From Hydrurus foetidus (Eukaryota), in assembly GCA_900617105.1 (NCBI GenBank), contig UYFQ01000001.1, positions 3,782,001 through 3,846,000 on the forward strand: a stretch of 64,000 bases of DNA, given 5' to 3'. The notes beneath the pieces are model-generated. The model was given only the letters and a program-made list of their open reading frames with translations, was not told the origin of the DNA and made no database searches. Positions 1,301 to 61,704 of this stretch are shown here, in pieces. How positions within the stretch are numbered: the stretch's first letter is position 1; every line of letters starts with the position of its first letter. Position numbers and translations under genes: made by a program.

Positions 1301-1355
1301 TAAACAAGCTGTAGCCCAATTTATACGGGCGCGAGCAGCTATATAATAAATAGCA
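1301..1355 (+). repeat. Dispersed ~55-bp element, copy 1 (intergenic)
   Basis: taaacaagctgtagcccaatttatacgggcgcgagcagctatataataaatagca; aligns by eye with 10 other copies. Confidence 0.9.
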
Positions 1356-1452
1356 TACTGCCGTGCCTGCAAATGCGCCCATCGCCTACACGCTGCCCTC
1401 AACGCCCAGTCAATAATTCGGTTTTGTTTTTATTGACCTCAGGAGAAAACCC

Positions 1453-1854
1453 ATGATGCAGTACGCTGGCCTTTACCTGGCCGTGTTTTTAACGATGTTT
1501 GTTATTGATGCCGTCTGGCTTGGCGTCATTGCCAAGTCGACTTATGCCAACGCGATGGGCGGCCTGCTAAGCCCCAACCCGAACTTGTGGGCTGCTGCTG
1601 CTTTTTATTTGCTGTTTCCGGTAGGGCTGGTGATATTTGCCGTGTTGCCGCAGGCCGACAGCCCGGTGTGGAAGGCAGCTTTGATGGGCGCGCTGTTCGG
1701 TTTTTTTGCTTATTCAACCTATGACTTGACCAACTTGGCCGTTGTTAAAGACTGGCCGCTGGGCTTGACGTTCATTGACATGGCGTGGGGCACGCTGGTC
1801 AGCGGCATTGCGGCAACGGCGGGCAAGCTGGCGCTGAATTATTTGAATAAGTAA
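1453..1854 (+). CDS. DUF2177-family membrane protein
   Basis: IDAVWLG...Y and GFFAYSTYDLTNLA...W...DMAWG motifs; AGGAG SD. Confidence 0.85.
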   Translation: MMQYAGLYLAVFLTMFVIDAVWLGVIAKSTYANAMGGLLSPNPNLWAAAAFYLLFPVGLVIFAVLPQADSPVWKAALMGALFGFFAYSTYDLTNLAVVKDWPLGLTFIDMAWGTLVSGIAATAGKLALNYLNK

Positions 1855-1881
1855 GGCGCTGCGGTTAGCAACAACCCACGC

Positions 1882-1916
1882 AAAAAATCCGGCAGCCCCC
1901 AAAGGTGCTGCCGGAT
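1882..1916 (-). terminator. Intrinsic terminator between convergent genes
   Basis: ATCCGGCAGC...GCTGCCGGAT stem with T-tract on minus strand. Confidence 0.7.
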
Positions 1917-1941
1917 GATTGAATGTTGAGCCGCCTGCTGA

Positions 1942-1981
1942 TCAAGTCCTCAAGTCCTCAAGCCCTCAGGCGCCCAAGTCT
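1942..1981. repeat. Degenerate 8-bp tandem repeat, (TCAAGTCC) about 5 units
   Basis: tcaagtcc tcaagtcc tcaagccc tcaggcgc ccaagtct. Confidence 0.65.
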
Positions 1982-2003
1982 GCAGAGCCTTCACAACGCC
2001 GCG

Positions 2004-2285
2004 TCAGATCGGGCTGGGCTCAGCCAACTCTTCAGTGGCAAAGGTAATGCTCTCGGTTAGCCGTGGCTCATTGACGTCTGACGTATCGCTGGCAAACAGT
2101 GCCAGCAAATAGTCGACAACGCCCTGCGCGCTGCTTTCTGGGCCAGACGCTTGTGGGGGTGGCCCGCCAGGGTTGCCCACGCCACCGCCGCCGCCGCAAC
2201 CCGCTACCAGGGCTGAAGCAAGTGCTGTGGCAAGGGCTGTACGCAGGGCCGCGCTAACCAGCCATTTTGAATCGAGTTTAGACAT
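2004..2285 (-). CDS. Small putative lipoprotein co-oriented downstream of the DUF4331 gene
   Basis: Signal peptide with lipobox LVAG-C, then GGGGG; AGGAAA SD. Confidence 0.75.
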   Translation of the reverse strand: MSKLDSKWLVSAALRTALATALASALVAGCGGGGGVGNPGGPPPQASGPESSAQGVVDYLLALFASDTSDVNEPRLTESITFATEELAEPSPI

Positions 2286-2312
2286 GGTGTTTCCTTTAAG
2301 TTGTCATTGCGC

Positions 2313-3905: not shown

Positions 3906-4176
3906 GTTGAACTCCTGGTTGGAATAAGGCAAATAAACGTACGGCTCTGGCCGCTACTGGTTTACGTGACTTTTTTCTGACTGGATTCAATCTAATTTTT
4001 AAAAACCGTTTTAAGCAGCGCTTTTTTAAAAGACGGGCAAAAGCCTGACGCGTCGGCAAGGCGTGGTCTGAGTTTTTGGCCGATGGGGCTCGCCGCTTTG
4101 CCGAGCTATCAACGAATCAGTGGTTGACTTCAGCTTATGCTGCCGCGGCATGCTGAAACCTTGCCAAATATCAATA

Positions 4177-4231
4177 GAATAGGGCTGCAGCCCAATAAAA
4201 TCAGGCGCAGTAAGCTATAAAAATAAGAGTA
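4177..4231 (+). repeat. Dispersed ~55-bp element, copy 2 (intergenic)
   Basis: gaatagggctgcagcccaataaaatcaggcgcagtaagctataaaaataagagta. Confidence 0.85.
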
Positions 4232-4347
4232 ATTTATAGCGCTGAAAGCGCTTGTCCTACGGCTAAACAAGGCCGTCTCCTACGCGCTCTTTGTGTTACC
4301 TTCAAATTTGGACATTTTTCCGGGTTTTCACTGCATTGTGAGACTTC

Positions 4348-14128: not shown

Positions 14129-14548
14129 ATGTACTTGATTGATACAAACGTCATCTCTGAACTGACCAAACCCGCGCCGAATCCTGCCGTTATTGACTGG
14201 TTTTCAAACACATCAGTACAAAGCGTTTACATAAGCGCTGTAACGCTGTGTGAAATGCAACGCGGATTGGCGCTGATGCCTGCGGGCAAGCGCAAGAACG
14301 CTCTAAAAATTGCGACTGATGCTGTGATTCAAGAAGATTTTGCCCAGCGGTGTTTGAGTCTGGATGCGCGGTGCGCTCCGGTGTATGGCTCTGTTGCAGC
14401 CAGTCAACAGCGACAAGGCCGCGCTTGCAGCGCCGAAGACGCGATGATTGCCGCAGTAGCATTGGCGAATCAACTGACCCTTGTCACACGCAATACAAAA
14501 GACTTCGATGGTATTTCGGGCTTGGTGTTATTGAACCCTTGGCTTTAA
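14129..14548 (+). CDS. vapC: VapC/FitB PIN-domain toxin
   Basis: YLIDTNVISE, DAMIAAVA and LVTRNTKDF. Confidence 0.92.
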   Translation: MYLIDTNVISELTKPAPNPAVIDWFSNTSVQSVYISAVTLCEMQRGLALMPAGKRKNALKIATDAVIQEDFAQRCLSLDARCAPVYGSVAASQQRQGRACSAEDAMIAAVALANQLTLVTRNTKDFDGISGLVLLNPWL

Positions 14549-14568
14549 AACCCGCCGATAATCAGGCT

Positions 14569-14951
14569 GTGAAGCACGCCAGACCGCCGCTGGTGCATAG
14601 CTGAAAAGCCGACGCGCAAGCATCGGGGGGAAACCCCGCACTGGAGGAACGTCCGGACTGCACAGGACAGCGTAGGAGGTAACACCTCTCCACCGTGAGG
14701 TGAGGATCAGAGCAACAGAGACGAGTCGGCTTGGGGCAACCGAAAGGAAGTTCTGAGCCGGGTGAAACGGGCAATCTCTACGCGCAGCAACACCAAATAG
14801 GCCAACATTGAAGCGGTTCGCTGAGTTGGCGGGTAGGTGGCACCGAGCCGGGTAGGCGACTCCCGGCCCAGATTAATGGCGGTCACACTGTGCTTTTTTG
14901 TTTCGGCAAGAAGGTTCAGCGCACAAAATCCGGCTTATCGGCGAGCTTCAC
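14569..14951 (+). ncRNA. rnpB: RNase P RNA (type A)
   Basis: GAGGAACGTCCGGACT, AGAGCAACAGAGA, GGTGAAACGG and ACAAAATCCGGCTTAT; 5' GTGAAGC pairs with 3' GCTTCAC. Confidence 0.96.
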
Positions 14952-14978
14952 ACTTTTAACTTTTTAAGCCACCCGCCT

Positions 14979-15175: not shown

Positions 15176-16843
15176 TCAAGCGCTCTGAATCCGCTCCACA
15201 TGCGCCAGCAAAGACCGCTTGGCCACGGGCCAGATGCGCTCATCTACATCGTCATAAGCCAGCGGCACCCAGTCGTCCAGCGTGCCGTTTGGCATGGCTT
15301 GCATCACGGTCATGATTTTGGCTTCGCGTTTCAAGCGGTGCGCTTTGAGCTGGGCAATGGCTGTTTTGGCCTGGCCGATAACGTAGCCGTGAGCGGGCAG
15401 GATGAAGTCGATGTTGTGTTCATCGCAGGCCGCGCTCAATACATCGAGTGAATCCAGGTAGGCGTTCATGTTGCCGTCGGGCGGGTTGATCACCGTGGTG
15501 CTGCCGTTGAGTATGTGGTCGCCGCTGAACAGCAGGCCGTCTTCCAGCAGCACCAGGCAAAGGTGATTGGCGGCATGGCCGGGCGTGTAAATTACCTTCA
15601 AAGTATGGCTATTTTGGTCATTTTTACAAGTTAAATTGGCCTCTGGCCCAATTGATACGGGCGCGAGCAGCTCATTATTTAATAGCAATTTATCAGGCGT
15701 GAAGACGCTGTCTGCGCGGGAGGTGGCGGCTGATGGCAGGCCCGCGATATGGGGCGTTGGTTTGCCCGCTTCTGTGCAAAGCGCTTGCAGCGGCCTGGCA
15801 CCCGGCGAATGATCGGGGTGCGAATGGGTGCAGATGATCAGGCGAATATCGCCACCTGCCGCGTCATACAACCGCTGCAAGTGGTCAACATCAGCTGGGC
15901 CAGGGTCAATCACTGTAAAACCCGACGCTGCATCGCCCACCACGTAACTGTTCGTACCCGGCCCGGTCATCACGCCGGGGTTGGGCGCAGTCAGGCGCAT
16001 GACGTTTTTAAGCAGCTTGACGGGCGCATCAGTTTGCCAGTCAAGCGTATGCACAATTTGCCCGTCCGGACTTAGCAGCTCCAGCTCGCCATAGGGCGGC
16101 TCATGCTCCATGTAGCGGGCTTCTTTGCCGGCTAAAAAGCCCGCGCGTGGGCAAGATGTCCACAGTGGTTGTTCGCTCGCGCAGGCCTGTAAAACGGAAT
16201 CGACTGTGGCGTAGTGTTGCAACCGCTCCAGCGTGCGAATGGTCGGAAAAATGATGAAAAATTTGCCCGCTGCATGCCGCGCCAGCGCATCAGCAGGGCG
16301 TATCCATTCGGGCTCAAACTGCTCGGCTTCGTCAGCCACCGGCTCTTGGCCTTCTGGCATGCGGGCAACTAAAAAAGGCACGTCAAAACGGCGCGGCAAA
16401 TCGCGGTCAGTCACCCAATGGGCCAGCACAAACACGTCGGCGCCCGCCAGGGTTAAACCGCGGGCCCGGCACTGTGCAGCAAAGGGCGCTTTACGGTCGA
16501 GCGCAGCGATGTCGGCTGTATTCACATGACTGCCATCTGCATGCTTGGCCAGCAGCACGCCTAGTTCTTCAAAACTCTCGCGAATGGCGGCGATTGCCTG
16601 CGTCAGGTGTAAATCAGTTTGGCTTGCGCGGCGGGTTGATTGCCCATGCGCAGCAGCATCAAGCGCATCAATACCGCCGCCCGGAAAAACATAAGCGCCA
16701 GGGGCAAAACTGGCCGTCATGGATCGGCGCGTCATCAGCACTTCGATGCCTTGATGGGTGTCGCGCAGAAGCAAAACCGTCGCCGCATTTCGAAGCAATG
16801 CGGGTTCACGCTGAGGCGTTAAAAGCTGATTTTGTCTTACCAT
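15176..16843 (-). CDS. Nudix hydrolase-metallo-beta-lactamase fusion protein
   Basis: VFPGG...AAIRESFEELG (Nudix); THSHPDH, TPGH, SGDH and PAHG (MBL). Confidence 0.9.
   Translation of the reverse strand: MVRQNQLLTPQREPALLRNAATVLLLRDTHQGIEVLMTRRSMTASFAPGAYVFPGGGIDALDAAAHGQSTRRASQTDLHLTQAIAAIRESFEELGVLLAKHADGSHVNTADIAALDRKAPFAAQCRARGLTLAGADVFVLAHWVTDRDLPRRFDVPFLVARMPEGQEPVADEAEQFEPEWIRPADALARHAAGKFFIIFPTIRTLERLQHYATVDSVLQACASEQPLWTSCPRAGFLAGKEARYMEHEPPYGELELLSPDGQIVHTLDWQTDAPVKLLKNVMRLTAPNPGVMTGPGTNSYVVGDAASGFTVIDPGPADVDHLQRLYDAAGGDIRLIICTHSHPDHSPGARPLQALCTEAGKPTPHIAGLPSAATSRADSVFTPDKLLLNNELLAPVSIGPEANLTCKNDQNSHTLKVIYTPGHAANHLCLVLLEDGLLFSGDHILNGSTTVINPPDGNMNAYLDSLDVLSAACDEHNIDFILPAHGYVIGQAKTAIAQLKAHRLKREAKIMTVMQAMPNGTLDDWVPLAYDDVDERIWPVAKRSLLAHVERIQSA
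15632..15687 (+). repeat. Dispersed ~55-bp element, copy 3, inside the Nudix-MBL CDS
   Basis: taaattggcctctggcccaattgatacgggcgcgagcagctcattatttaatagca. Confidence 0.9.
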
Positions 16844-29325: not shown

Positions 29326-29652
29326 CTAAGCCTCCGGCGTCACCCCCCGCGCCACCAAAAACCGCGCCACCATGTTGTAGGTTGCAATCGCTGCCGTCAA
29401 CTCAACAATTTTCGTGGCGTCGAAGTGTTGTTTGAGCTGCGCGAATACCTCGTCGGCCACCTTCACGTCCAGTGTCATTTGCGCTGCGTATTGAACCACT
29501 ATGCTTTCAATAGCTGCTAGCGCCTTATTTTGTTGGGCCACAGCCGTGTTTGCCTTGTAAATGAGGCAAACTTGCTGCAATGCATCTAGCTCAGTCTGTG
29601 TGCCGCCTGCTTTTAAAAAATCTGGCGCGTGGTGGTGGTGTTCGTACGCCGC
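29326..29652 (-). pseudogene. 5'-truncated duplicate of the CMD-family gene 3' end
   Basis: Manual alignment with 31192-31513: about 33 mismatches in 322 nt, no gaps; no 5' half. Confidence 0.9.
29497..29552 (-). repeat. Dispersed ~55-bp element, copy 4, in the CMD fragment
   Basis: caaacacggctgtggcccaacaaaataaggcgctagcagctattgaaagcatagtg on minus strand. Confidence 0.85.
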
Positions 29653-29899: not shown

Positions 29900-29932
29900 A
29901 TGTTATTCTTCCAAAGCATGGAATAATAACAT
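29900..29932. promoter_or_regulatory. 14-bp inverted repeat directly upstream of the ATPase start
   Basis: ATGTTATTCTTCCA-AAGCA-TGGAATAATAACAT, one mismatch. Confidence 0.6.
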
Positions 29933-29934
29933 TG

Positions 29935-31164
29935 ATGGGCTTTCACGAAATCAACCGCCAAGCACTGCCCGAACTAAGTCATCTGATGCAGGAATTTCCT
30001 GCCGTAGCGATTTTGGGGCCGCGCCAGGTGGGTAAAACTACGTTTGCACATCAGGTCGCTTTGGCCAGGCAAGTGGCCAATTCTGGTGCTTTAAAGCCGC
30101 TTTATCTTGATCTTGAGTTGCCCACTGACCTGGTGCAACTGGCTGACCCTGTGGCTTTTTTTGCGGCAAATGCAGATCGCCTGATCATTCTGGATGAGAT
30201 TCAGCGCATGCCGGGTTTGTTTGCTGTGCTGCGTGGGGTCATTGATCAGCGCCGTCGATCGGGTGCGCGGTCGGCGCAGTTTTTGCTGTTGGGGTCGGCG
30301 AGTATCGAGCTGCTGGCGCAGTCGTCAGAAACGCTGGCGGGGCGTCTTGCTTATATTGACCTGGCGCCATTTGTTGTCACGGAGCTGAATACACAGCAAG
30401 CTGCTGCACCAGGTGCGTTGTGGTTGCGCGGTGGGTTCCCTGACGCTTACCTGGCCAGAAGCGATGCGGCCAGTATGCGGTGGCGCTCGCAATTTATCAC
30501 CACGTATCTGGAGCGTGACATACCGCTGCTTGGACCCCGAATTCCTGCTCAAACACTGCGTCGGCTGTGGACCATGTTGGCGTACGAGCAAGCACAGATG
30601 TTGAATGCGGCACGTTTGGCTGCGTCAATGGGCGTGAGTGGTCAAACCATTGCGCGCTACGTTGACCTGCTATGTGACCTGTTGTTGTTGCGCCGGTTGC
30701 AACCCTGGGCGCGGCAGTCAGGCAAGCGGCTCGTCAAGACCCCAAAAATTTATGTGCGCGACAGTGGTCTGGTGCATGCCTTGCTTGGTTTGACGACTGC
30801 AGCCGATCTGTTGTCTCACCCCGTAGTGGGCGGCAGCTGGGAAGGCTGGGTGATTGAAAACCTGCTGGCCTGCGCACCTGCCAATGCGCGTGCCAGTTTT
30901 TATCGCACGGTCGCGGGTGCCGAGATTGATTTGCTTTTGGAGCTGCCGGGGAACCAGTTGTGGGCGGTCGAGATAAAACGCTCCAGCGCGCCAACTGTAA
31001 GCAAGGGATTTCACTTGGGCTGCGCTGATGTTAACGTGACCCGTGCAATAGTTGTCAGCAGTGCAAACGCCGTGTTTCCGATGGCGGGCGGAGTTGAGCA
31101 TGTCCCGCTGCTGGCCTTGATGCAGGAGCTGCTGGCATTAAAGCAGTTGCAGCTTCAAAGCTAA
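29935..31164 (+). CDS. AAA+ ATPase with DUF4143 and C-terminal PD-(D/E)XK-like motif (COG1373 type)
   Basis: GPRQVGKTT, LDEIQ, LLGS, ETLAGR, RGGFP, PKIYVRDSG and EIDL...AVEIK. Confidence 0.88.
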   Translation: MGFHEINRQALPELSHLMQEFPAVAILGPRQVGKTTFAHQVALARQVANSGALKPLYLDLELPTDLVQLADPVAFFAANADRLIILDEIQRMPGLFAVLRGVIDQRRRSGARSAQFLLLGSASIELLAQSSETLAGRLAYIDLAPFVVTELNTQQAAAPGALWLRGGFPDAYLARSDAASMRWRSQFITTYLERDIPLLGPRIPAQTLRRLWTMLAYEQAQMLNAARLAASMGVSGQTIARYVDLLCDLLLLRRLQPWARQSGKRLVKTPKIYVRDSGLVHALLGLTTAADLLSHPVVGGSWEGWVIENLLACAPANARASFYRTVAGAEIDLLLELPGNQLWAVEIKRSSAPTVSKGFHLGCADVNVTRAIVVSSANAVFPMAGGVEHVPLLALMQELLALKQLQLQS

Positions 31165-31174
31165 GTGCCCCGAC

Positions 31175-31741
31175 TCAGATTCCAGGTCGTGCTTCCGGCG
31201 ACACCCCCAACGCCACCAAAAACCGCGCCACCATGTTGTACGTGGCAATCGCCGCCGTCAGCTCCACAATTTGCGTGGTGTCAAAGTGTTGTTTGAGCTG
31301 CGCGAACACCTCGTCACTGACTTTAACGTCCAGCGTCATTTGCGCTGCGTATTGAACCACTATGCTTTCAATAGCTGCTAGCGCCTTATTTGATTGGGCC
31401 ACAGTCGTATTTGACTTGTAAATGAGGCAAACTTGCTGCAATGCATCCAGCTCGGCCTGTGTGCCGCCTGCTTTTAAAAAATCTGGCGCATGGTGGTGGT
31501 ATTCATAGGCGGCTCCGGTCAGTAGCGCCACAGTGCAGATGCCGAGTTCGCGCAGTTTCCAGCTGGTCGGCAGGTCGGTGCGCACGGCTTTTAAATACAC
31601 GTTCCAGCCGCGCGCCAGTGGTTCGCTCCACAGTAGCGCTTTGTCGAGGTTGATGAACTCGCCGCCCCGGCGTTTCAAAATGGCTTGTACCAAGTCATCG
31701 GGTTGAGGTTTAAGTGCAGGGGTCCAGTCAGGGATGCGCAT
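31175..31741 (-). CDS. Carboxymuconolactone decarboxylase/AhpD-family protein
   Basis: LRELGICTVA...YEYHHH and IVELTAAIATYNMVARFL. Confidence 0.85.
   Translation of the reverse strand: MRIPDWTPALKPQPDDLVQAILKRRGGEFINLDKALLWSEPLARGWNVYLKAVRTDLPTSWKLRELGICTVALLTGAAYEYHHHAPDFLKAGGTQAELDALQQVCLIYKSNTTVAQSNKALAAIESIVVQYAAQMTLDVKVSDEVFAQLKQHFDTTQIVELTAAIATYNMVARFLVALGVSPEARPGI
31358..31413 (-). repeat. Dispersed ~55-bp element, copy 5, inside the CMD CDS
   Basis: caaatacgactgtggcccaatcaaataaggcgctagcagctattgaaagcatagtg. Confidence 0.85.
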
Positions 31742-31788
31742 GCAGTGCTCACTTTCAAAAAAACATAGGGTAGCGCGATAATCTGGCC

Positions 31789-32703
31789 ATGATGCAACTG
31801 AAGCGGGTCAAATTCACCAAAATGCAGGGCGCGGGCAATGACTTTGTTGTGCTGGACGAGACGCGCGGCTTGCTGGGCTTGAATGCTGCGCAGTACCGGT
31901 TTTTAGCCGACCGGCATTTTGGCGTGGGGGCCGATCAGATTTTGTCGGTTCGGCCCGCGCCTTCGCCTGCGGTGGACTTTGAGTACGTGATTCACAACGC
32001 CGATGGCGGTGAGGTAGAACACTGCGGCAACGGTGCGCGCTGCTTTGTACGATTTGCGCGTGAGCGCGGTTTGACCGACAAGGCGACTCTGAAAGTACAA
32101 ACCATGAACCGCGTGCTCACGCTCGCGATGCAAAGCGACGGCCGGGTCACGGTTGACATGGGCGCGCCGGTGTTTGACTTGGCCCGCATTCCGTTTGATG
32201 CGACTGGATTGACGCCTGAAAACGCCAATTCATGGCAAAAATGGCCGTTAAATATGGCTGCAGCCCAATTAATACAGGCGCAAGCAGCTCCTGTATTGGT
32301 AGCAGTTAGTGTGGCCGTCCTGTCCATGGGCAACCCGCATGCGGTGCAGGTAGTAAGCGACGTGGACGCAGCGCCGGTGCTGCAGTTGGGCCCGCTGATC
32401 GAAAGCCACGCGCGCTTTGCCAAACGGGTTAACGCCGGGTTCATGCAAATCGTCAGCCGCAGTGACATCAAACTTAGGGTGTACGAGCGCGGCGCGGGTG
32501 AGACGCTGGCCTGCGGCACGGGCGCGTGCGCGGCGGTGGTGGCGGGCATTCGCCTGGGCCTGCTCGATGGGAAAGTCAACGTGCAAACACATGGCGGGCC
32601 GCTCACTATTGAATGGTCTGGCGCGCTGGACGCGCCTGTGATGATGACCGGGCCAGCCACGACGGTTTTTGAGTCTGAAATCGACATCCCCGATACGGTC
32701 TGA
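31789..32703 (+). CDS. dapF: Diaminopimelate epimerase
   Basis: [24 protein letters not shown] and [16 protein letters not shown]. Confidence 0.98.
32249..32304 (+). repeat. Dispersed ~55-bp element, copy 6, inside dapF
   Basis: taaatatggctgcagcccaattaatacaggcgcaagcagctcctgtattggtagca. Confidence 0.9.
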
Positions 32704-32733
32704 ACCCTGTTTAAAAAATACGACAATCTACCC

Positions 32734-33417
32734 ATGAACCCAATCGACCAACCCATCACTGAAGACGACATTGCCAACTTTCTGGCAAACACGCCAGACT
32801 TTTTTGAGCGCCATGCCGAGCTGCTGGCCACGGTGCAATTGTCTAGCGGCCACGGCAGCCGCGCGGTGAGCTTGCAAGAGCGGCAAGCCGGCCTGTTGCG
32901 CGACAAAATCAAGGGGCTTGAGGGAAAAATTGTCGACATGATTCGCCACGGCAATGAAAACGTGGCCATTGCCGACAAACTGCAAACCTGCACCCACAAC
33001 CTGCTGCTGACCGCCCACGCACCCGACCTGCCTGAAACCATTGTGCGCGAGCTCAAAGTGCAGTTTGACATTCCGCAGGCGGCGATCAAGGTGTGGCGCA
33101 TCAACGGTATTTTTACGGGCGAGCCTTTTTGCGAAGGCGTCAGCGCCGACACGCAGGCGTTTGCGTCGTCTCTTGGCGCGCCTTACTGCGGCGTGAATTC
33201 TGGGTTTGATGCCGCGGCGTGGTTGCCTGAGCCCGCGCAAGCCATGTCGGTGGCGCTTATTCCGTTGCGGGTGGACGGCGCTGTTGACGCCTTTGGCTTG
33301 CTGGTGCTGGCCTCGCCCGATGCCGAGCGGTTTAACAGCGCCATGGGCACTGAATTTTTGGCGCAAATCGGCGACCTGGCTGGTGCCGCGCTGACCCGCT
33401 TGCTGCCTGTCGATTGA
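32734..33417 (+). CDS. DUF484 (YigA-like) protein
   Basis: PDFFERH, AVSLQERQ and RF..MGT.FL; position between dapF and xerC. Confidence 0.9.
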   Translation: MNPIDQPITEDDIANFLANTPDFFERHAELLATVQLSSGHGSRAVSLQERQAGLLRDKIKGLEGKIVDMIRHGNENVAIADKLQTCTHNLLLTAHAPDLPETIVRELKVQFDIPQAAIKVWRINGIFTGEPFCEGVSADTQAFASSLGAPYCGVNSGFDAAAWLPEPAQAMSVALIPLRVDGAVDAFGLLVLASPDAERFNSAMGTEFLAQIGDLAGAALTRLLPVD

Positions 33418-33498
33418 GTCTGGTTTGACCAGCAGCCGGTCAAGCGCCCAACAAACTCACGGCATTTAGGCAGCCCTTAAAAAGTCTGTTCACGGGCA

Positions 33499-34470
33499 AT
33501 GTCAAACGCACTGGTCCAAGCCGCAATCGCACCTGATCTTGACCCGCTGGCGCAGCGCTACCTTGAGCACGTGCGCGTCGAAAAGCGGCTGGCGCTGCGC
33601 ACCACCGAGCTGTATTGCGCAGACCTGGTCAAGCTGCAAGCCCAGGCCGCGCTGGCCGGGGTAGGGCTGGCAGACGTTCAAAACACGCACATTCGGCGCT
33701 GGGTGGCCCAAATGCATGGCGCGGGCCGCAGCGCACGCGGCATCGCCTTGATTTTGTCGGGCTGGCGCGGCTTTTATGTTTGGCTGGGCCGCGAGGGCAG
33801 GGTGGCCAGTAACCCGGTGCAGGGCGTGCGCGCCCCAAAGGCTGCCAAGCCACTACCCAAAGCGCTGGGCGTTGATGAAGCGGTGCAACTGGCAGACTTT
33901 CGCGCCAGCAGCGAGCAAAGCAGCCCAACGCTCGATGCGCGTGACCACTGTATGGTTGAATTGCTTTACGGCTGCGGCCTGCGCATTGGCGAGCTGGTGG
34001 GCCTGGACGTGCAGGCCAGCCGCACAGCGCGCGGCTGGATTGACGCCGAAGCTGCCGAAGCCAATGTGCTGGGCAAAGGCGAAAAACGCCGCAGCGTGCC
34101 CGTTGGCAGCAAAGCCCTGGCCGCACTGGCCGAGTGGTTGAACTTTCGCAGCGAGTGGGCCAGGAACGACGCTGCGCTGTTCGTCAACGCCCAAGGCAAG
34201 CGCTTGAGCCCGCAGCATATTCGAGTCAGGCTCAAGCAGCGTTCGCTGCAGGCGGGGCTGGCCACGCCGGTGCACCCGCACATGCTGCGGCACTCGTTTG
34301 CTAGCCATGTGCTGCAGTCCAGCGGGGACTTGCGCGCGGTGCAAGAGCTGCTGGGCCATGCCAACATCACCACCACACAGGTCTACACGCGGCTTGATTT
34401 TCAGCACCTGGCAACGGTGTATGACGCCGCGCATCCGCGCGCCAAACGTACACCGCCTGCGCGCAAGTGA
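33499..34470 (+). CDS. xerC: Tyrosine recombinase XerC
   Basis: LYGCGLR, GKGEK, HPHMLRHSFA and LLGH...TTQVYT; dapF-DUF484-xerC synteny. Confidence 0.93.
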   Translation: MSNALVQAAIAPDLDPLAQRYLEHVRVEKRLALRTTELYCADLVKLQAQAALAGVGLADVQNTHIRRWVAQMHGAGRSARGIALILSGWRGFYVWLGREGRVASNPVQGVRAPKAAKPLPKALGVDEAVQLADFRASSEQSSPTLDARDHCMVELLYGCGLRIGELVGLDVQASRTARGWIDAEAAEANVLGKGEKRRSVPVGSKALAALAEWLNFRSEWARNDAALFVNAQGKRLSPQHIRVRLKQRSLQAGLATPVHPHMLRHSFASHVLQSSGDLRAVQELLGHANITTTQVYTRLDFQHLATVYDAAHPRAKRTPPARK

Positions 34471-34501
34471 AAAGTCGGCCTGTTGAACCGTCAGCGGGCA
34501 G

Positions 34502-36289
34502 CTAGTGCTGTTGCGAGGGCCTGTGTGCGCGGCGCCTCGGCGGTGGAGCCACTTCACCCAGCATGTACACGGCCTTCTTGCTTGATGCTGGAGCGGTTGC
34601 CAGCAAATTCTCTAGCTGCTCCAGCACGGGTTGGGGGTTGCCGCCCGCCATAGGCACCAGTGCGTAAGCCACGCGCACCTGACTCACGCAGTCCACGTGC
34701 AGGCCGGGGTAGGGCATCAGGCAGCGCGCCACAATGCGGGGAGCCAGGGTGGCGGCTTCTTCGGCGTTAAACGGGCCTTCGACCAAAATGCCAAAACGCA
34801 GCTCAGACAGGCGGGCAGCGCTGTCAATTTCTCGCGTGGTGGAAAGTAAGCGCGAAGCCACGCGCAGAGGCAGCGCGTTGGCCATTTTTTTGCCAAAATC
34901 ACGCAAAATTTGCTCGCTGTTCATGACCTCAATCACCAAAACGGCACTTTGGTGTTTAAGCCGCGCAGACCGCGCCTGCATGCGCGCCAATCGCGTCGTA
35001 AACACCTGTTCAGTGATCAGCCCGGTAGCAGGGTCAATCTGGTCAACCCCGGCAATACGGCGGGCGTTTTCGCGGCGCTGCTGGCTGCGGGAAAACAACG
35101 CTGCCAACATGGCCAGTTGCTGTATGGCCAGGCTGGCCAGCCAGCTTTGTTCAGTGAAAAAGCTCAGCGGAATCCACTGCACATAGCGCAGCGCTGCCAG
35201 CCCTATTGACAGAAAAAACGGTATAAAACTGATCAGTATCCACACGCCAAAACGGTCACCATGTCGCCATGCCCAGGCATTGATGCCAATCATCAGTACC
35301 ACCGCCAGCAGCAGGTAGGGCAAAGTCAGTGAAATACGCAGTGCGGTGTCCGTCAGGAGCAGCGCGGCGCACAAAACCAGCCCCGCAGCGGCTGCGGCAC
35401 ACACCCCCAGATCAACGTTGCGCGAACGCTGCCCCAGATACACAATCTTGGCATTAAGCAGTAAAAAAGAGATGATCGCCAACATGCCCAGCACCACCAA
35501 GCTACGGTCAGCCCAATCTGGGTTGTTGGGCCACAAATACAGGCCGCCAAAGCCTGAAATGGCCGCTTGGGTCAAGCCCACCAGCGCAGCGCAAGCTGCA
35601 GCAAACAAATAGGCGCTGTCTTTCAGCCAAACCAGCCCTGTGAGTCCCACCAGCGTGCCCAGCAAAGAAATGCCGAAGTAGGCGCCCATAAAAATCGACA
35701 AACCTTGCTCGCCCCGCAGCAGTTTGTCCGTCGCGATCAGGCGCACCGGCGCGCTGAACCCTTGAGCATTCTCCAGTCGCAATAAATAGGTGGTGGTTTG
35801 CCCCGCAGTCGTTTCAATGGCCATTACAGGGTGTCGCTGCGGCATGCTCCACGCACTGTTGGCAATACTGTCCCCCGCTTGCTGCACCTGATTGCTCCCG
35901 TCGGTGTTCAGTCTGAAAAGGGAGGCGCGGTCAAGCGCTGCATAAGGAATTTCTAACAACCAATGGCTGGCGTCAGCCGATTCCAGTACGCTAAAACGCA
36001 GCCAAAGTGCCTGGCCGGGTTGCAGCGGGTAAATACCTCGTTCTGGGCCTTTTTGCCAGTTTGCCCGGGTGTCGGCCGCAATTTCTGCTGGCGTCAACTT
36101 GGCTGTGTTGTCTATCCGGTACTCGCTTTCAGCAACCAGGTCTACAGTCGCGCTGGTTTTTGAAAGTGCTATTGGCGCGGCCGCTTGCGCAGGGGCCACA
36201 GCGCCAAGTGCTAGAGCTGCCCAAACAGCGAAGGGTAGTAAAAGCGCTAGTGCACGCTGAGCGAAATGAAAAAATGGCAAAGAAGTCAT
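34502..36289 (-). CDS. 7TMR-DISM sensor with degenerate GGDEF domain
   Basis: Periplasmic DISMED2-like region, seven hydrophobic segments, DPATGL; ARLSELRF in place of ARxGGDEF. Confidence 0.8.
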   Translation of the reverse strand: MTSLPFFHFAQRALALLLPFAVWAALALGAVAPAQAAAPIALSKTSATVDLVAESEYRIDNTAKLTPAEIAADTRANWQKGPERGIYPLQPGQALWLRFSVLESADASHWLLEIPYAALDRASLFRLNTDGSNQVQQAGDSIANSAWSMPQRHPVMAIETTAGQTTTYLLRLENAQGFSAPVRLIATDKLLRGEQGLSIFMGAYFGISLLGTLVGLTGLVWLKDSAYLFAAACAALVGLTQAAISGFGGLYLWPNNPDWADRSLVVLGMLAIISFLLLNAKIVYLGQRSRNVDLGVCAAAAAGLVLCAALLLTDTALRISLTLPYLLLAVVLMIGINAWAWRHGDRFGVWILISFIPFFLSIGLAALRYVQWIPLSFFTEQSWLASLAIQQLAMLAALFSRSQQRRENARRIAGVDQIDPATGLITEQVFTTRLARMQARSARLKHQSAVLVIEVMNSEQILRDFGKKMANALPLRVASRLLSTTREIDSAARLSELRFGILVEGPFNAEEAATLAPRIVARCLMPYPGLHVDCVSQVRVAYALVPMAGGNPQPVLEQLENLLATAPASSKKAVYMLGEVAPPPRRRAHRPSQQH

Positions 36290-36418
36290 TTGGTGGATTT
36301 ACGAATTCTAGTTTTAATTGTGACGGCACCAAAAGAGTGCCTTGGTTTCAATTCGTGTGGAAATGCACAGTTCCGCAGACTTTGGTTTGTTCGGCGGACT
36401 TGCCGCGACAATCTGGGC

Positions 36419-37606
36419 ATGAAATCACTGCACTTAAAACCCGGAAAAGAAAAATCCCTGCTGCGGCGCCATCCCTGGGTGTTTGATGGCGCTATTGCCA
36501 CGGGCAGTGCCGATGCGGGCGAGACGGTGCGGGTTGAAAGCGCCGACGGCCAGTTTTTAGGCTGGGCGGCGTACAGCCCGCAATCAAAAATTCGCGCGCG
36601 AGTGTGGAGTTTTGATGAGGCGCAGCGCATTGACGCTTCTTTTTTCATAGCTGCTTGCGCCCGTTCTATATCGTCTAGAAGCCTGTTTGATATACAAAGT
36701 AACGGCTTGCGGCTGATTCATGGTGAGTCTGACGGCCTGCCAGGCCTGGTGGTCGACCGCTATGCAGACACGCTGGTGGCGCAATTTTCCAGCTGCGGCT
36801 CAGAGCGCTTTAAAAGCGTGATTGTGGATGCGCTGCTCAAGCAAACCGGCTTGACCAAGCTCTACGAGAGATCAGACGCCAGCGTTCGCGCGCTTGAAGG
36901 CTTGCCCGAGGCAACCGGTTGGCTGGCCGGGTCTGGATCAACAGAAATCGTTTTAACTGAGCATGACTGGAAGCTCAGCCTTGACGTTGCCGAAGGGCAC
37001 AAAACCGGGTTTTATCTAGACCAGCGCGACAGCCGCTACAAGTTCAGCCAGTACACCCGCCGCATGGGGTTCAAGCGGGTGCTCAATTGCTACAGCTACA
37101 CGGGCGGTTTTACGGTGGCAGCGTTGGCCGGCGGGGCGGCGCATGTCACGTCGATTGACTCGTCTGGCCCGGCAATTGAGCGTGCAAAAGCCAACGTAGC
37201 CCTGAACGGCTTTGACGCGGCGCGCACCACCATGATCGACGCCGACGTGAACGCCTGCCTTCGCCAGTACCTGAAAGACGGCGTAACGTTCGATGCCATC
37301 GTGCTCGACCCGCCCAAATTCGCCCCGACTGCGGCGCACGCCGAGCGCGCGGCCCGAGCCTACAAAGACATTAACCGCCTGGCTTTGATGTTGCTCGAAC
37401 CTGGCGGCGCGCTTTTTACCTATTCATGTTCAGGTGGCATCAGCGCTGATTTGTTTCACAAAATCGTGGCCGGCGCGGGCATGGACGCAGGCGTTGACGC
37501 TTACATTACCGAACGCTTGGGAGGCGCACCGGACCACCCAATGACCGTGACATTTCCTGAAGGCGAATACCTGAAGGGGATGGTGTTGGTCAAAAAGCCA
37601 GCCTGA
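36419..37606 (+). CDS. rlmI: RlmI-like class I SAM-dependent 23S rRNA m5C methyltransferase
   Basis: RRHPWVF, GESDGLPG, GHKTGFYLDQR, LDPPKF, SCS and EGEYLKG. Confidence 0.88.
   Translation: MKSLHLKPGKEKSLLRRHPWVFDGAIATGSADAGETVRVESADGQFLGWAAYSPQSKIRARVWSFDEAQRIDASFFIAACARSISSRSLFDIQSNGLRLIHGESDGLPGLVVDRYADTLVAQFSSCGSERFKSVIVDALLKQTGLTKLYERSDASVRALEGLPEATGWLAGSGSTEIVLTEHDWKLSLDVAEGHKTGFYLDQRDSRYKFSQYTRRMGFKRVLNCYSYTGGFTVAALAGGAAHVTSIDSSGPAIERAKANVALNGFDAARTTMIDADVNACLRQYLKDGVTFDAIVLDPPKFAPTAAHAERAARAYKDINRLALMLLEPGGALFTYSCSGGISADLFHKIVAGAGMDAGVDAYITERLGGAPDHPMTVTFPEGEYLKGMVLVKKPA
36634..36689 (-). repeat. Dispersed ~55-bp element, copy 7, inside the rlmI-like CDS
   Basis: caaacaggcttctagacgatatagaacgggcgcaagcagctatgaaaaaagaagcg on minus strand. 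Confidence 0.8.
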
Positions 37607-37632
37607 AGCTAAAAAACGGCGTTTTTATGCAT

Positions 37633-37688
37633 TAAATAGACTTCTAGCCCAATAAATACAGGCGCAAAGAGCTATGAATATGATAGTG
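37633..37688 (+). repeat. Dispersed ~55-bp element, copy 8 (intergenic)
   Basis: taaatagacttctagcccaataaatacaggcgcaaagagctatgaatatgatagtg. Confidence 0.88.
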
Positions 37689-37808
37689 ATTATTCCTTGG
37701 CAAAGTACGTTGTTTAATGAGATGCGGCTCGCTTTGCCCTTGTCTTACGACGCTTTCGCCCCATATCGGCGCTAACCGATAAACTAGATTTACCTTCTCA
37801 GGATTTTT

Positions 37809-38867
37809 ATGAGCTTGATTCCCGTCACCATCCTTACCGGCTTTTTGGGTTCCGGCAAAACAACGCTTTTAAAGCGCATTTTGACTGAGGCGCACGGCCA
37901 AAAAATTGCCGTGATTGAAAACGAGTTTGGCGAAGAAAACATCGACAACGAAATTTTGGTCAATGACACGCAAGAAAACATCATTCAGATGAACAACGGC
38001 TGCGTTTGCTGCTCCATTCGCGAAGACTTACGCGAAACACTGCAAGTATTGGCCGAAAAAAAGCGCAAAGGCGAGCTGGTTTTTGACCGCGTAGTGATCG
38101 AAACCACCGGCCTGGCCGACCCTGGCCCGGTCGCGCAAACGTTTTTCATGGACGAAGAAATTGCCGAGCAATACCTGCTGGACTCCATCTTGACGCTGGT
38201 CGATGCCAAGCACGCCGAAACCCAGCTGAACGATCGCCAGGAAGCGCGCCGCCAGATTGGTTTTGCAGACCAGATTTTCATCAGTAAAACCGATTTGGTG
38301 GCTGAAGCGGAAGTCAAAGCGCTGATGCACCGCCTGACCCACATGAACCCGCGCGCCCCCCAAAAGGCGGTGCATTTTGGCGAAGTGGCCATTGCCGATG
38401 TGTTTGACCTGCGCGGCTTTAACTTAAACGCCAAGCTGGACATTGACCCCGATTTTCTCACGGCTGACGACCATGCCGGGCACGACCATTCAGGCCACAA
38501 CCATGCCGAGGGTGAGCATTGCGACCACCCGTCCCACGCTACAGAAAAAGGTCACCACCACGCGCATGACGATGACGTGAAAAGCTTTGTATTTCGCTCA
38601 GACAAGGCCTTTAGCCCAGCCAAGCTGGAAGACTTTTTGGGCGCGATTGTCAACATCTACGGCCCGCGCATGCTGCGCTACAAGGGCGTGCTGAACATGG
38701 AAGGCACCGAGCGCAAGGTGATTTTTCAAGGCGTGCATCAATTGATGGGCAGCGACTTAGGCCCAGCTTGGGCAGTGAGCGAAGCTAAAACCAGCAAGAT
38801 GGTGTTTATTGGCATTGACCTGCCCAAAGATATTTTTATGCAAGGACTTGAGCAGTGCCTGGTTTGA
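37809..38867 (+). CDS. COG0523 (CobW/YjiA) G3E GTPase metallochaperone
   Basis: GFLGSGKTT, NEFG, GCVCC, ETTGLA, SKTD and His-rich insert. Confidence 0.93.
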   Translation: MSLIPVTILTGFLGSGKTTLLKRILTEAHGQKIAVIENEFGEENIDNEILVNDTQENIIQMNNGCVCCSIREDLRETLQVLAEKKRKGELVFDRVVIETTGLADPGPVAQTFFMDEEIAEQYLLDSILTLVDAKHAETQLNDRQEARRQIGFADQIFISKTDLVAEAEVKALMHRLTHMNPRAPQKAVHFGEVAIADVFDLRGFNLNAKLDIDPDFLTADDHAGHDHSGHNHAEGEHCDHPSHATEKGHHHAHDDDVKSFVFRSDKAFSPAKLEDFLGAIVNIYGPRMLRYKGVLNMEGTERKVIFQGVHQLMGSDLGPAWAVSEAKTSKMVFIGIDLPKDIFMQGLEQCLV

Positions 38868-57243: not shown

Positions 57244-57247
57244 AGCT

Positions 57248-58477: not shown

Positions 58478-58488
58478 CGCGTATTGAT

Positions 58489-58588: not shown

Positions 58589-58654
58589 ACTCTCAATGTA
58601 AAACAAAAACGTATTTTTTAGGCAACTGCAAATTAACTGAACAGGAGGCTCCCC

Positions 58655-59890
58655 ATGAGCATCGAAATGATTGAAGTCGAAGAGTTCAACCAAGGCACAC
58701 AAATCAAGGTGATTGGTGTCGGCGGCGGCGGCGGCAATGCTGTCGGCCACATGATTGCCTGTGGCGTGCAAGGCGTGGAGTTCATCTGCGCCAACACCGA
58801 CGCGCAGGCACTGACGCGCGGTAGCGCACACAAAACCATTCAGCTGGGCGGCAGTGGGCTGGGCGCGGGTAGCAAGCCAGACAAAGGCCGCGACGCGGCT
58901 GAAATGGCGGTTGACGATATTCGCGCGGCCATTGATGGCGCGCACATGCTGTTTATCACCGCCGGTATGGGCGGCGGTACTGGCACAGGTGCCGCACCAG
59001 TCATTGCCCGTATCGCCAAGGAAATGGGCATTTTGACCGTGGGTGTGGTCACCAAACCATTTGAGTTTGAAGGCGGCCGGCGCATGACCAATGCGGACCT
59101 GGGGCTGGCCGAGCTGGAAGCGAATGTCGATTCATTGATCGTTGTGCTCAATGAAAAGCTGCTTGAAGTCCTGGGCGAAGAAGTAACCCAAGATGAAGCT
59201 TTTGCGCACGCTAACGACGTGCTCAAAAACGCGGTGGGTGGTATTGCCGAGATCATCAATGAATACGGCAACGTCAACGTCGACTTTGAAGACGTACGCA
59301 CCGTGATGGGCGAGCCGGGCAAAGCCATGATGGGTACCGCAGTAGCCAGCGGTCCTGACCGCGCCCGCATAGCAGCCGAGCAAGCTGTGGCTTGCCCGCT
59401 GCTTGAAGGTATCGATCTGTCGGGTGCCAAAGGCGTTCTGGTGTTGGTCACTGCCGCTAAAGGCTCGCTCAAGTTGAGCGAGTCCAAGCTGGCCATGAAC
59501 ACCATTCGTGCCTATGCATCTCCTGATGCGCATGTCATCTATGGCGCTGCTTATGACGACAAGTTGGGCGAAGACATTCGCGTGACCGTTGTGGCGACAG
59601 GCCTCAGCCGGCAAGGAGTTCGCCGCCACGCGCCGCCGCTGCAGGTATTGCGCACGGGCACTGACAATGTGCCATTCAATGTGCCCACGCTCAATGCAGT
59701 CGCTGGTATGGGCATGTCGGGTCAACCGTCAATGGGTTCTGGTTCCGGCCAGCCCGACTACGGCAATATGTCGGTGCCAAGCGTGTGGCGTACCAACCGC
59801 ACGCAAGCAGCTGCCAAAGTGGACGCGCTGGCCTCTGGCGGTATGGATGACTTTGAAATCCCGGCATTTCTCAGAAAACAGGCAGACTGA
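58655..59890 (+). CDS. ftsZ: Cell division protein FtsZ
   Basis: GGGTGTG, NVDFED and C-terminal IPAFLRKQAD. Confidence 0.99.
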   Translation: MSIEMIEVEEFNQGTQIKVIGVGGGGGNAVGHMIACGVQGVEFICANTDAQALTRGSAHKTIQLGGSGLGAGSKPDKGRDAAEMAVDDIRAAIDGAHMLFITAGMGGGTGTGAAPVIARIAKEMGILTVGVVTKPFEFEGGRRMTNADLGLAELEANVDSLIVVLNEKLLEVLGEEVTQDEAFAHANDVLKNAVGGIAEIINEYGNVNVDFEDVRTVMGEPGKAMMGTAVASGPDRARIAAEQAVACPLLEGIDLSGAKGVLVLVTAAKGSLKLSESKLAMNTIRAYASPDAHVIYGAAYDDKLGEDIRVTVVATGLSRQGVRRHAPPLQVLRTGTDNVPFNVPTLNAVAGMGMSGQPSMGSGSGQPDYGNMSVPSVWRTNRTQAAAKVDALASGGMDDFEIPAFLRKQAD

Positions 59891-59966
59891 CTGTAAGACT
59901 GCGCCCTTTGCCACAGGCAGAGGGCGTGGAAAACCTTGGGCATTCGGGAAAACTTAAAATACAGGC

Positions 59967-60890
59967 ATGCTTGCCCAGCGAACTCTTAAAACACTTACCA
60001 AAGCGGTAGGTGTCGGCCTGCACAGCGGCCAGCGCGTCGAGCTCACGCTTAGGCCCGCTGCGGCGGACACGGGCATCGTGTTTCGGCGGGTTGACCTGCC
60101 GCAACCGGTTGATATTGCAGTGTCTGCCATCGCCGTCACTGACACTAGACTGGCCTCTACCGTTTCAAACGGCAGCGCCAAAGTACTCACAGTTGAACAC
60201 CTGATGTCTGCCTGTGCGGGTCTCGGCATTGACAATATGTATGTCGACATCACGGCCGAGGAAGTTCCCATCCTGGATGGGTCGGCATCGTCATTTGTTT
60301 TTTTGTTGCAATCTGCAGGCATTCAATTGCAAAACGCTCCTAAGCGTTTCATCAGGGTTTTGAAAACCGTAGAAGTACGTGAAGGCGAAGGCCCCACCAC
60401 CAAGTGGGCACGTTTTACGCCCTACGAAGGCTACAAGCTTGGTTTTGAAATTGAGTTTGACCATCCTGCGGTAGATTCAACTGGCCAATGCGTTGAATTT
60501 GACATGAGCACGGGCTCTTACACCAGAGACATCGCCAGAGCCCGCACGTTTGGTTTCACCAAAGACGTCGAAATGATGCGCGCTAATGGCTTGGCGATGG
60601 GGGGCGGCTTGGACAACGCCATCGTGATGGACGACTACAAAGTGCTCAATACCGAGGGTCTTCGGTACAACGACGAGTTCGTGAAGCACAAAATTCTGGA
60701 CGCCATGGGCGACTTGCACTTGTTGGGTAAACCACTGCTGGCGGCATACAGCGCGTTTCGCTCTGGGCACGCGCTTAACAACAAGCTGCTGCGCGAGCTT
60801 TTGTCCCGCCCCGACGCCTATGAAGTTGTCACCTTTGACGATGAAAAGCGTGCGCCACGCGGCTTTGCCACGCTGGCGCGTGCCTGGTAG
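59967..60890 (+). CDS. lpxC: UDP-3-O-acyl-GlcNAc deacetylase
   Basis: [19 protein letters not shown] and HKILD. Confidence 0.98.
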
Positions 60891-60904
60891 GCAAGGGGTA
60901 CGGC

Positions 60905-61081
60905 ATGCTTGTTTTTCGCTGGTTGGTTTTACTGATGTTGCTTGGCGCCGTGGTGTCGTTTATGTTTTATGCGGGCACCGGGCAAGAGCGATTCAAACGC
61001 TACGGTTTGGTTCTTTTGAAATGGACGTTGATTGCGGGCCTGGGCTTTTTCGGTGTGCTGATTTTGGAGCGCGTCGCCTAA
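60905..61081 (+). CDS. Small two-TM membrane protein, 58 aa (absent from the ORF track)
   Basis: MLVFRWLVLLMLLGAVVSFMFYAGTGQERFKRYGLVLLKWTLIAGLGFFGVLILERVA; AAGGGG SD; fills the lpxC-ruvC gap. Confidence 0.75.
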   Translation: MLVFRWLVLLMLLGAVVSFMFYAGTGQERFKRYGLVLLKWTLIAGLGFFGVLILERVA

Positions 61082-61098
61082 CGCTCAACGCGCTGATG

Positions 61099-61647
61099 TC
61101 AGTAACTTCGGCCGGCTTTGTAGGCAGCGCTCGACTTGGGCTTGAGTGAGGTCGCTGCATCCAAAATTGCGTTTGAGCGCCCGGCATGGGCATGCGTGAT
61201 GGCCAATCCTAACGCATCGGCCGCGTCTTTTCCCGGCAACGCGGGTAGCTTGAGCAGGCGCATCACCATTTGCTGCACTTCAGCCTTGCCTGCTTTGCCG
61301 TAGCCTGCTATGGCTTTTTTTAATTGCAGCGCGGTGTACTCGGCCACTGGTAAATCACATGAAACCAGCGCCGTCACGCATGCCCCCCGCGCCTGGCCGA
61401 GCAGCAGTGTTGCCTGCGGATTGACGTTGACAAAAACAATTTCGACGCTTGAGGCGTCTGGCTGGTAGCGCTCCACAACTTCGCGCACGCCATCAAACAG
61501 CACCTTCAGGCGTGCCGGTAAATCGCCGCGGTCGAGGTGTGTGGTTTTAATCGTGCCACTGGCTACATAGCGCAGGTGCTGTCCGTCAACGTCGACCACA
61601 CCGAAGCCGGCAATTTGCAGTCCAGGGTCGATTCCTAAGATGCGCAT
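61099..61647 (-). CDS. ruvC: Holliday junction resolvase
   Basis: [18 protein letters not shown] and DAADAL. Confidence 0.96.
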
Positions 61648-61648
61648 A

Positions 61649-61704
61649 CGCTATGAAATAAGGAGCTGCTCGCGCCTTTATCAATTGGGCTAGAGGCTGA
61701 TTTA
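61649..61704 (-). repeat. Dispersed element, copy 11, filling the spacer upstream of ruvC
   Basis: taaatcagcctctagcccaattgataaaggcgcgagcagctccttatttcatagcg. Confidence 0.9.

Follow-up and report, generated by a model that had tools for sequence, protein, structure and literature searches.

The stretch analysed here, referred to throughout as the window, comprises 64,000 nucleotides deposited for Hydrurus foetidus (NCBI GenBank assembly GCA_900617105.1, contig UYFQ01000001.1, positions 3,782,001 to 3,846,000 of the forward strand); its sequence is Polaromonas-like. It contains dispersed copies of a 57-bp motif, which lie in spacers between genes and over coding sequence. An initial annotation, prepared from the letters of the sequence, had listed 11 copies on both strands, and each of these was recovered by gap-free alignment within one base of its listed position. 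Seven of the 11 are coding, as had been proposed (MBL-fold gene, truncated CMD duplicate, CMD gene, dapF, rlmI, murG, and murC 3' end/ddl start). A weak twelfth copy in lpxL had been overlooked. The copies are located as follows (window positions):

1300–1356, plus strand: motif copy, intergenic, 3' of a TctC-family gene; 68.8 bits
4176–4232, plus strand: motif copy, intergenic, 5' of a hybrid histidine kinase; 57.4 bits
10656–10712, minus strand: weak motif copy over the coding sequence of an lpxL-type acyltransferase; 29.2 bits; gap-free against PDB 5knk
15552–15631, plus strand: example position of the phased A/T tail, about 65–85 bp before column 1; a property of the set of copies, not of each copy
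15632–15688, plus strand: antisense motif copy in a variable-length loop of a NUDIX/MBL-fold gene; 67.4 bits
29496–29552, minus strand: motif copy in the truncated duplicate of a CMD-family gene; not independent of the copy at 31357
31357–31413, minus strand: motif copy in the CMD-family gene, sense; 51.6 bits
32249–32305, plus strand: motif copy in dapF, an ancient orthologous site; 67.5 bits
36633–36689, minus strand: motif copy in rlmI, antisense, new in the lineage, length unchanged; 54.4 bits
37633–37689, plus strand: motif copy, intergenic, between rlmI and a CobW-family GTPase gene; 64.5 bits
53926–53982, minus strand: weak motif copy over the C-terminal helices of murG, antisense; 19.1 bits
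55422–55478, minus strand: motif copy across the murC 3' end and the ddl start; 53.7 bits
61648–61704, minus strand: motif copy filling the spacer before the ruvC start codon; 65.8 bits

Scores were compared with those of shuffled sequence, as had been recommended together with the list of copies. With the seed matrix, 50 local shuffles of the window gave 19 at best, against 32–66 for the 11 copies. With a refined matrix prepared from 313 copies, the 11 copies score 19–69 bits. No match above 18 was obtained in shuffled versions of 1.3 Mb of sequence, and none above 0 in three 800-kb shuffles. Because the copies at 29496 and 31357 both lie inside a 323-bp duplication (29330–29652 and 31191–31513, 90% identity), the 11 copies correspond to 10 independent ones. 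In the alignment of all 12 copies, G-C-G-C, G-C-T and A-G are invariant. An Rfam search of the window gave no match at any copy; the only matches, to RNase P and (below threshold) to DnaX, were located elsewhere. The duplicated 3' part of the CMD-family gene flanks an AAA_14/DUF4143 ATPase gene (29932–31164) on both sides, which suggests an old insertion with duplication.

Architecture of the motif

Over the 313 copies the 57 columns carry about 57 bits, the mean pairwise identity is 0.60, and none of 3000 randomly drawn pairs of copies exceeded an identity of 0.9. The motif is ungapped and lacks a sharp 5' end. Its spacers, which had been described as nearly constant, are essentially fixed in length: the left half was found at the exact offset in 265 of the 266 copies with a detectable one, a further 46 copies having none, and a second spacing check placed 262 of 263 testable copies at offset 0. 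The right block (columns 38–56) is two-fold symmetric, with an A/T centre and A/T flanks, and has a pattern common to the lineages (GCTMY-N2-WWW-N2-RTAG); the most conserved bases of the motif, T41 (100%) and A53 (98%), are spaced as T-N11-A. The left dyad of the initial annotation is a second dyad centred on column 24, at 23 bp from the centre of the right block; in the lineage of the window it is imperfect. At some sites left arms flank one shared right block on both sides (e.g. G026:C1:14217-14305 and G026:C22:5440-5528; G and C numbers denote genomes and contigs), and some pairs of copies stand tail to tail at a distance of 103–166 bp (e.g. G152:C1:1312813-1313035).

Stem covariation, which had been suggested as a means of distinguishing an RNA structure from a DNA site, was not found: complementarity between dyad pairs was at chance level within single genomes (G152 included), and the centre of the right dyad avoids complementarity. 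The exceptions were a single pair in G128 (z 4.3) and several pairs in pooled sets, such as would be expected from a mixture of lineage dialects (see below). Covariation falls between neighbouring bases (AA versus TT), not across stems, and in the A/T columns there are more A↔T changes (1609) than transitions (1153); this excess and the covariation of neighbours point to selection on DNA shape. Phasing of A/T with a period of 10.5 bp extends about 65–85 bp past the 5' end of the motif, and none was found past the 3' end. The AA/TT/AT amplitude at 10.5 bp, determined over 449 copies with a null maximum of 0.0145, was 0.143 for columns −44 to −3, 0.059 for columns −65 to −24 and 0.021 for columns −86 to −45. 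The motif thus behaves as a double-stranded DNA site recognised by a protein, in line with the extended protein-binding site considered at annotation, and both shape and sequence would appear to be read over about 120–140 bp.

Distribution and placement

With a looser pattern, 80 Comamonadaceae genomes were sorted into motif-rich and motif-poor ones; the set consisted of the 79 genomes with MurG closest to that of the window, taken from 151 genomes (about one per genus), plus G152. There were 129–1014 matches in 35 of the 80 genomes, 17–102 in 13, and at most 10 in 32; the reversed pattern, which served as control, gave at most 30 matches. Counts obtained with a strict pattern over the 151 genomes were bimodal. 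Exact matches in named genomes were mainly from Polaromonas, and also from Rhodoferax, Simplicispira, Giesbergeria and one Variovorax bin, so that the family of the motif is the Comamonadaceae; outside it, the right block alone had at most 14 matches in 196 genomes from 57 other families of the same order. Motif-rich and motif-poor genomes are interspersed in a rough tree with much missing data and a weak backbone, and repeated loss of the motif within the Comamonadaceae is suggested. A blastn search with one 81-base copy returned nothing from plasmids or phages, which is a weak test for a motif so degenerate. In G057 (100% complete, 28 matches) comEC was not found and a residual murC site is present; in the motif-rich G007, comEC is split into three frame pieces (G007:C1:1836740-1837544). 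Decay after loss of competence is a possible explanation of the pattern in these two genomes.

Placement was determined for 96 copies in 800 kb of G152. Of these, 33 are coding, 56 are intergenic (58%) and seven overlap gene ends; motif density is 12-fold lower in coding DNA, and the coding copies use three of the six reading frames. Convergent spacers are enriched (21 of 54, in comparison with 25 of 213 tandem and 10 of 81 divergent spacers), of the copies in tandem spacers 11 are sense and 14 antisense, and both strands carry coding copies. Low-GC surface-polysaccharide clusters without copies make up the two largest gaps (55 and 28 kb); it is from this pair of gaps, within 800 kb of a single genome and with rRNA operons not covered, that the depletion in foreign DNA is read. 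One 400-kb region was more even than a Poisson distribution (0.57, p about 0.02) and the other was not. Replichore bias, another check proposed at the outset, was absent: 58 strict copies (32 plus, 26 minus) were intermixed around a complete chromosome. At loci picked for one site, further copies amounted to 4.1 per 100 kb in viral and 15.4 per 100 kb in chromosomal sequence.

Sites within genes and lineage dialects

The sites in murG, dapF, lpxL and rlmI lie over ancient protein sequence. At rlmI, the window and G152 differ at 31 of 57 bases, 27 of the 31 differences favouring the motif, and 11 of the 20 RlmI residues at the site are changed, against 63 of 376 elsewhere (p=0.0002). The same position scores −42 and −31 in the motif-rich congeners G152 and G128, in which RlmI is of the same length and has a helix nearer to that of Escherichia coli RlmI than the window's is. 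As judged from these alignments, the rlmI site was newly gained in the lineage of the window by base substitution. MurG is gap-free across its site in comparison with 30 relatives and with E. coli MurG; the homologous position scores above 0 bits in 14 of 16 motif-rich and none of seven motif-poor genomes, among which kin are not independent. The lpxL segment is likewise gap-free against the solved LpxM structure (PDB 5knk).

At the dapF site, 13 of 14 motif-rich genomes reach more than 16 bits, and all 15 motif-poor ones fall between −37 and −61. The loop that carries it has 48 residues in 10 of the 14 motif-rich genomes, 56–61 in the other four, and 42–50 in the motif-poor genomes; in the window it is eight residues longer than in most relatives, as it is in G051 and G082, and in G020 it is longer by 13. 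The extra bases in the dapF loop of the window (32237–32330) resemble short local duplications on either side of the site, and these seem to free it from the conserved W-x-K-W-P-L and strand residues. Homologues of the MBL gene reach best scores of 22–31 bits in five of five motif-rich genomes and remain below −30 in nine of nine motif-poor ones. The site in the CMD gene also occurs in G082 (39 bits) and is absent from the motif-poor G145 and G106; the murC/ddl site also occurs in G094, G093, G062 and G057 (24–40 bits).

The congeners G128 and G152 (84% identity) were compared over 400 kb, in which 33 of 45 sites could be anchored and 29 of the 33 were kept. Inspection by eye of the remaining four showed one that was 1 bp shorter, one that was inverted, and two that had been replaced by another repeat; no clean empty site was found in the 33 anchored comparisons. 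At three intergenic loci of G128/G152, motif sites are replaced or inverted by a distinct repeat that is palindromic and GC-rich. Among the matches listed for contigs of four sediment metagenomes over positions 30800–38800, there was no joint that skipped just one copy; this result was not used as evidence. The motif is, on the sequence comparisons, gained and kept within genes by base changes and at a cost in amino acids. Insertion of a selfish element of the Rickettsia palindromic element (RPE) type, one of the readings first offered, is unsupported because the coding copies overlay homologous protein sequence and the new rlmI site was built by substitutions. The chromosome-organising site offered alongside it is a possible reading. 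The accompanying statement that the motif is no classical repetitive extragenic palindromic (REP) sequence or miniature inverted-repeat transposable element (MITE) agrees with the lack of stem covariation, indels, empty sites or a transposase that tracks the motif.

The central block differs by lineage: it is GGCGC in the window, GCAC in G086, TGCGT in G026, CGCGGG in G082 and TGCTC in G051, and is distinct again in G128, the right block being common to all of these. Orthologous dapF and murG sites carry the dialect of their own genome, with residue changes. In the 29 pairs kept between G128 and G152, columns 39–41 and 52–54 differ in none, and columns 20–29 differ in 41–72%. In G082, the central block is near-uniform and the flanks are variable. 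A chromosomal integron-like array beside a tyrosine recombinase gene was observed in G086 (loci L127, L128 and L129 on contigs G086:C18, C26 and C31). Its repeated cassette leader holds a motif copy next to the cassette boundary repeat; some of the cassette copies have the GCAC dialect of the host, and more have a GCGC dialect. Tagging of these cassettes for transfer would fit this arrangement. Elsewhere in the window, a VapC-like gene (14129–14953) lies directly 5' of the RNase P RNA gene and is ordinary.

Candidate readers, rival explanations and known systems

Candidate genes for a protein that reads the motif were profiled in the 80 genomes or in subsets of them. comEC was detected in 78 of the 80; ComEC residues, compared between 16 motif-rich and nine motif-poor genomes, did not track the motif, nor did pilin counts. 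The minor pilin operons (fimT-pilV-pilW-pilX-pilY1-pilE) were seen to be exchanged, at one and the same chromosomal position and even among members of a genus, for operons of very different type (loci L325, L328, L333, L338, L342, L345 and L358). The sole Lrp/AsnC paralogue common to five motif-rich genomes was also found in four of five motif-poor ones. Seven LysR-family proteins are common to two small motif-rich genomes, and four of them were profiled: three were not found in the richest genome, G020, and were all present in 15 of 25 motif-poor genomes; the fourth was present in 69 of 80 genomes of both classes. A single-copy, well-conserved Y1 HUH gene of about 235 amino acids, resembling the REP-associated tyrosine transposases (RAYTs), is present in 70 of the 80 genomes and has a similar neighbourhood at most of 20 loci (L455–L474, e.g. 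G001:C17:1473-2186). It occurs in both classes, was not found in the motif-rich G093, G126 and G089, and had no flanking clusters of the motif at 10 motif-rich loci; it looks domesticated and unrelated to the motif.

The motif is likely to be a self-DNA signal read by a protein. Gain in place, dialects, a biased use of reading frames, scarcity in foreign DNA, and one-sided A/T tracts beside a GC core are hallmarks of the DNA uptake sequences (DUS) and uptake signal sequences (USS), and for this reason an uptake signal is preferred; such a signal was absent from the readings of the initial annotation and fits the dialects and the in-place gain best. We therefore propose, tentatively and short of conviction, that, like DUS and USS, the motif may mark self-DNA for uptake and build up under molecular drive. 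With the same reserve, it could represent a third, independently evolved system of self-DNA recognition for horizontal transfer, with a signal about five times as long as DUS or USS. Natural transformability of Acidovorax temperans, A. facilis and Verminephrobacter eiseniae is given in the available text of PMC4212676, together with evidence that uptake by V. eiseniae is selective for sequence; that text names no uptake motif.

For such an uptake signal, a DNA-bending or wrapping reader would contact about 120–140 bp. The fixed dyad and the wrapped tail would be read by a conserved component, and the variable centre would switch the dialect, even between congeners. Uptake and recombination would favour fragments whose sites are better, and better alleles would thereby spread without benefit per site; the drive would presumably suffice to replace, in place, a dozen residues of a conserved enzyme. 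A change of reader would cause the central block to be rewritten genome-wide, and sites would decay once the uptake bias was lost.

Several observations speak against an uptake signal. With about 57 bits and one copy per 4–10 kb, the motif is far longer and sparser than DUS or USS; its scores are bimodal (11 sites at 0–18 bits, 96 above); and its two-fold symmetric right block suits a homodimer better than a pilin. An inverted-pair terminator arrangement was not found, none of 188 adjacent distances being below 100 bp. For V. eiseniae, the species with the best case for uptake specificity, no pair of this motif is listed in the available part of Tong 2017 (PMC5217627). No profiled candidate reader tracks the motif across the Comamonadaceae genomes, OxyR, CysB, a ModE-like protein, H-NS, gyrase, PilQ, DprA/ComM, terminases, relaxases and reverse transcriptases being outside the profiling. 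comEC and comEA look similar in motif-rich and motif-poor genomes, the motif-rich G007 has its comEC in three pieces, and a GRxR-like end of FimT is found in both classes. The minor-pilin operons of the motif-rich G152 and G097 share 26–41% identity despite the same right block. One PilW subtype was detected in 14 of 35 motif-rich genomes (four of the 14 being seeds of the profile) and in none of 32 motif-poor ones; it covers the motif-rich class in part, and its restriction may be a clade effect. The motif-poor G025, a member of the same clade, has a diverged PilW.

The main rival, which we regard as rather unlikely, is an intracellular oligomeric DNA-wrapping protein (a LysR- or Lrp-like nucleoid regulator, or a topoisomerase such as gyrase), with selection acting on each site. 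Operators of LysR proteins follow the rule T-N11-A. T41 and A53 conform to it within a symmetric, A/T-centred site with a second dyad 23 bp off, and the one-sided 10.5-bp tail would give the 120–140-bp footprint; that convergent spacers are enriched, a trend also present in the available part of PMC5217627, points the same way. Neither the four profiled of the seven shared LysR proteins nor the Lrp paralogue tracks the motif, and the change of dialect between congeners, the apparent repeated loss and the rewriting of 11 residues of RlmI are hard to obtain under per-site selection. It is improbable that the motif is a drive signal for a different route of transfer, such as a site at which the terminase of a gene transfer agent starts packaging or a transfer origin on the chromosome, or that its central block is a target for template-directed overwriting. 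Any route that favours motif-bearing alleles would yield the same in-place gain and dialects, the near-uniform central block of G082 beside variable flanks would be accommodated, and ring-shaped packaging proteins are compatible with a wrapped, one-sided footprint. Genes for such a route were neither seen nor looked for, viral loci are poorer in extra copies than chromosomal ones, and the retention of protein-critical residues by the coding copies argues against wholesale overwriting.

A domesticated non-autonomous mobile repeat, or one spread by gene conversion (REP/REPIN, RPE or MITE type), is largely refuted and very improbable. The hundreds of dispersed copies, 58% of them intergenic, the single-copy RAYT-like HUH gene in 70 of 80 genomes, and site-bearing loops that are 7–13 residues longer in some lineages (dapF in four of 14 motif-rich genomes; MBL gene) would be expected of it; the absence of indels, of a sharp 5' end, of near-identical pairs, of stem covariation and of clean empty sites (0 of 33), the gain of the rlmI site in place, and the presence of the RAYT-like gene in both classes without flanking motif clusters would not. 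A structured RNA, terminator or promoter element, for which the two dyads and the many copies near gene ends (also noted in the available text of PMC5217627) could be cited, is hardly credible in view of the lack of an Rfam match, the chance level of dyad complementarity, the nearly equal sense and antisense copies in tandem spacers (11 and 14), the coding copies on both strands, and a tail phased to the DNA helix.

If the motif is an uptake signal, it would add a third sequence-specific uptake system beyond the two families known in the literature covered, and molecular drive could be tested in a new setting, namely a large family associated with fresh water, soil and plants, which has members that are cultured and transformable. 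Natural test material is offered by pairs that differ in having the motif or not, by within-genus dialect pairs and by the lineage-specific rlmI site, and the motif could serve as a tag that improves the transformation of Comamonadaceae. If the reader is intracellular, the motif would belong to a sequence-specific chromosome-wrapping system that reshapes proteins, of which no description was found in the literature covered. On either reading, the odd A/T-rich peptides of Comamonadaceae proteins and the hitherto unexplained Tong 2017 pairs would be accounted for.

Among known systems, REP/REPIN-RAYT and RPE repeats are hairpins inserted at sites that are also found empty, and a transposase is linked to them. 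The motif resembles them in being dispersed and mainly intergenic with some copies in frame in genes, and differs in being overlaid, unpaired and unlinked to the RAYT-like gene. With LysR operators and the wrapped sites of Lrp/AsnC proteins it shares phased bending, its right-block geometry and a further site roughly two turns off; unlike those, it has hundreds of sites off promoters and within genes, and no tested paralogue tracks it. Unlike KOPS and Chi, it has no strand bias that switches at origin and terminus. BRE (PMC3110155) resembles the motif in its occurrence in Comamonadaceae, sometimes within genes; as described in the available text, BRE is 75–91 bp long with 69% G+C, tandem, present in at most 29 copies per genome and also found in Bordetella, and the sequence given there is unrelated to the motif. 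The available part of PMC3975124 describes VeiPR1 as occurring in V. eiseniae and in no other species.

The initial annotation had not recognised a named family and had allowed that one might have been described; this holds for fragments, which are found in the available text of Tong, Schliekelman and Mrazek 2017 (PMC5217627), and not for the whole element, of which no description was found in the full-text literature (subscription journals and theses not covered). Those authors list "potential novel motifs" as separate spaced pairs. ATAGCT(N22)CAAAAG (Polaromonas naphthalenivorans) and GCTTAT(N5)AAGCG (Acidovorax ebreus) are pieces of the motif, and of the 17 places where the A. ebreus pair occurs, 15 overlap a match to the matrix; of the 140 pairs for Rhodoferax ferrireducens, TCTAG-N22-AGCTA and TCTAG-N36-TAGCA, among 32 of the 140 rows, fit the motif columns. 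The whole element, its tail, dialects, distribution and mechanism do not figure in the available part of that paper.

The closest comparison is with DUS and USS, which, as far as the available texts describe them, have cores of 9–12 bp in about 1500–2200 copies (PMC7811141; bioRxiv 10.1101/2025.10.24.684340); dialects and frame bias of uptake sequences are described there for two families only (bioRxiv 10.1101/2025.10.24.684340). USS evolve by point mutation, are depleted in newly acquired DNA and constrained genes, and combine a GC core with rigid AT tracts, under a drive that requires no fitness benefit (PMC7811141, available part). On these descriptions, the motif is unlike DUS and USS in its length (about 57 bp with a 65–85-bp tail), its dyad symmetry, the lack of inverted-pair terminators and its patchy occurrence within the family; no ComP/ComN-like receptor was found for it. 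Like the USS of Pasteurellaceae and the DUS of Neisseriaceae, as described in the same texts, it is restricted to a family, abundant, of point-mutation origin, and endowed with dialects and frame bias; like both it is sparse in constrained coding and foreign DNA, and like USS it has a GC core with one-sided A/T tracts.

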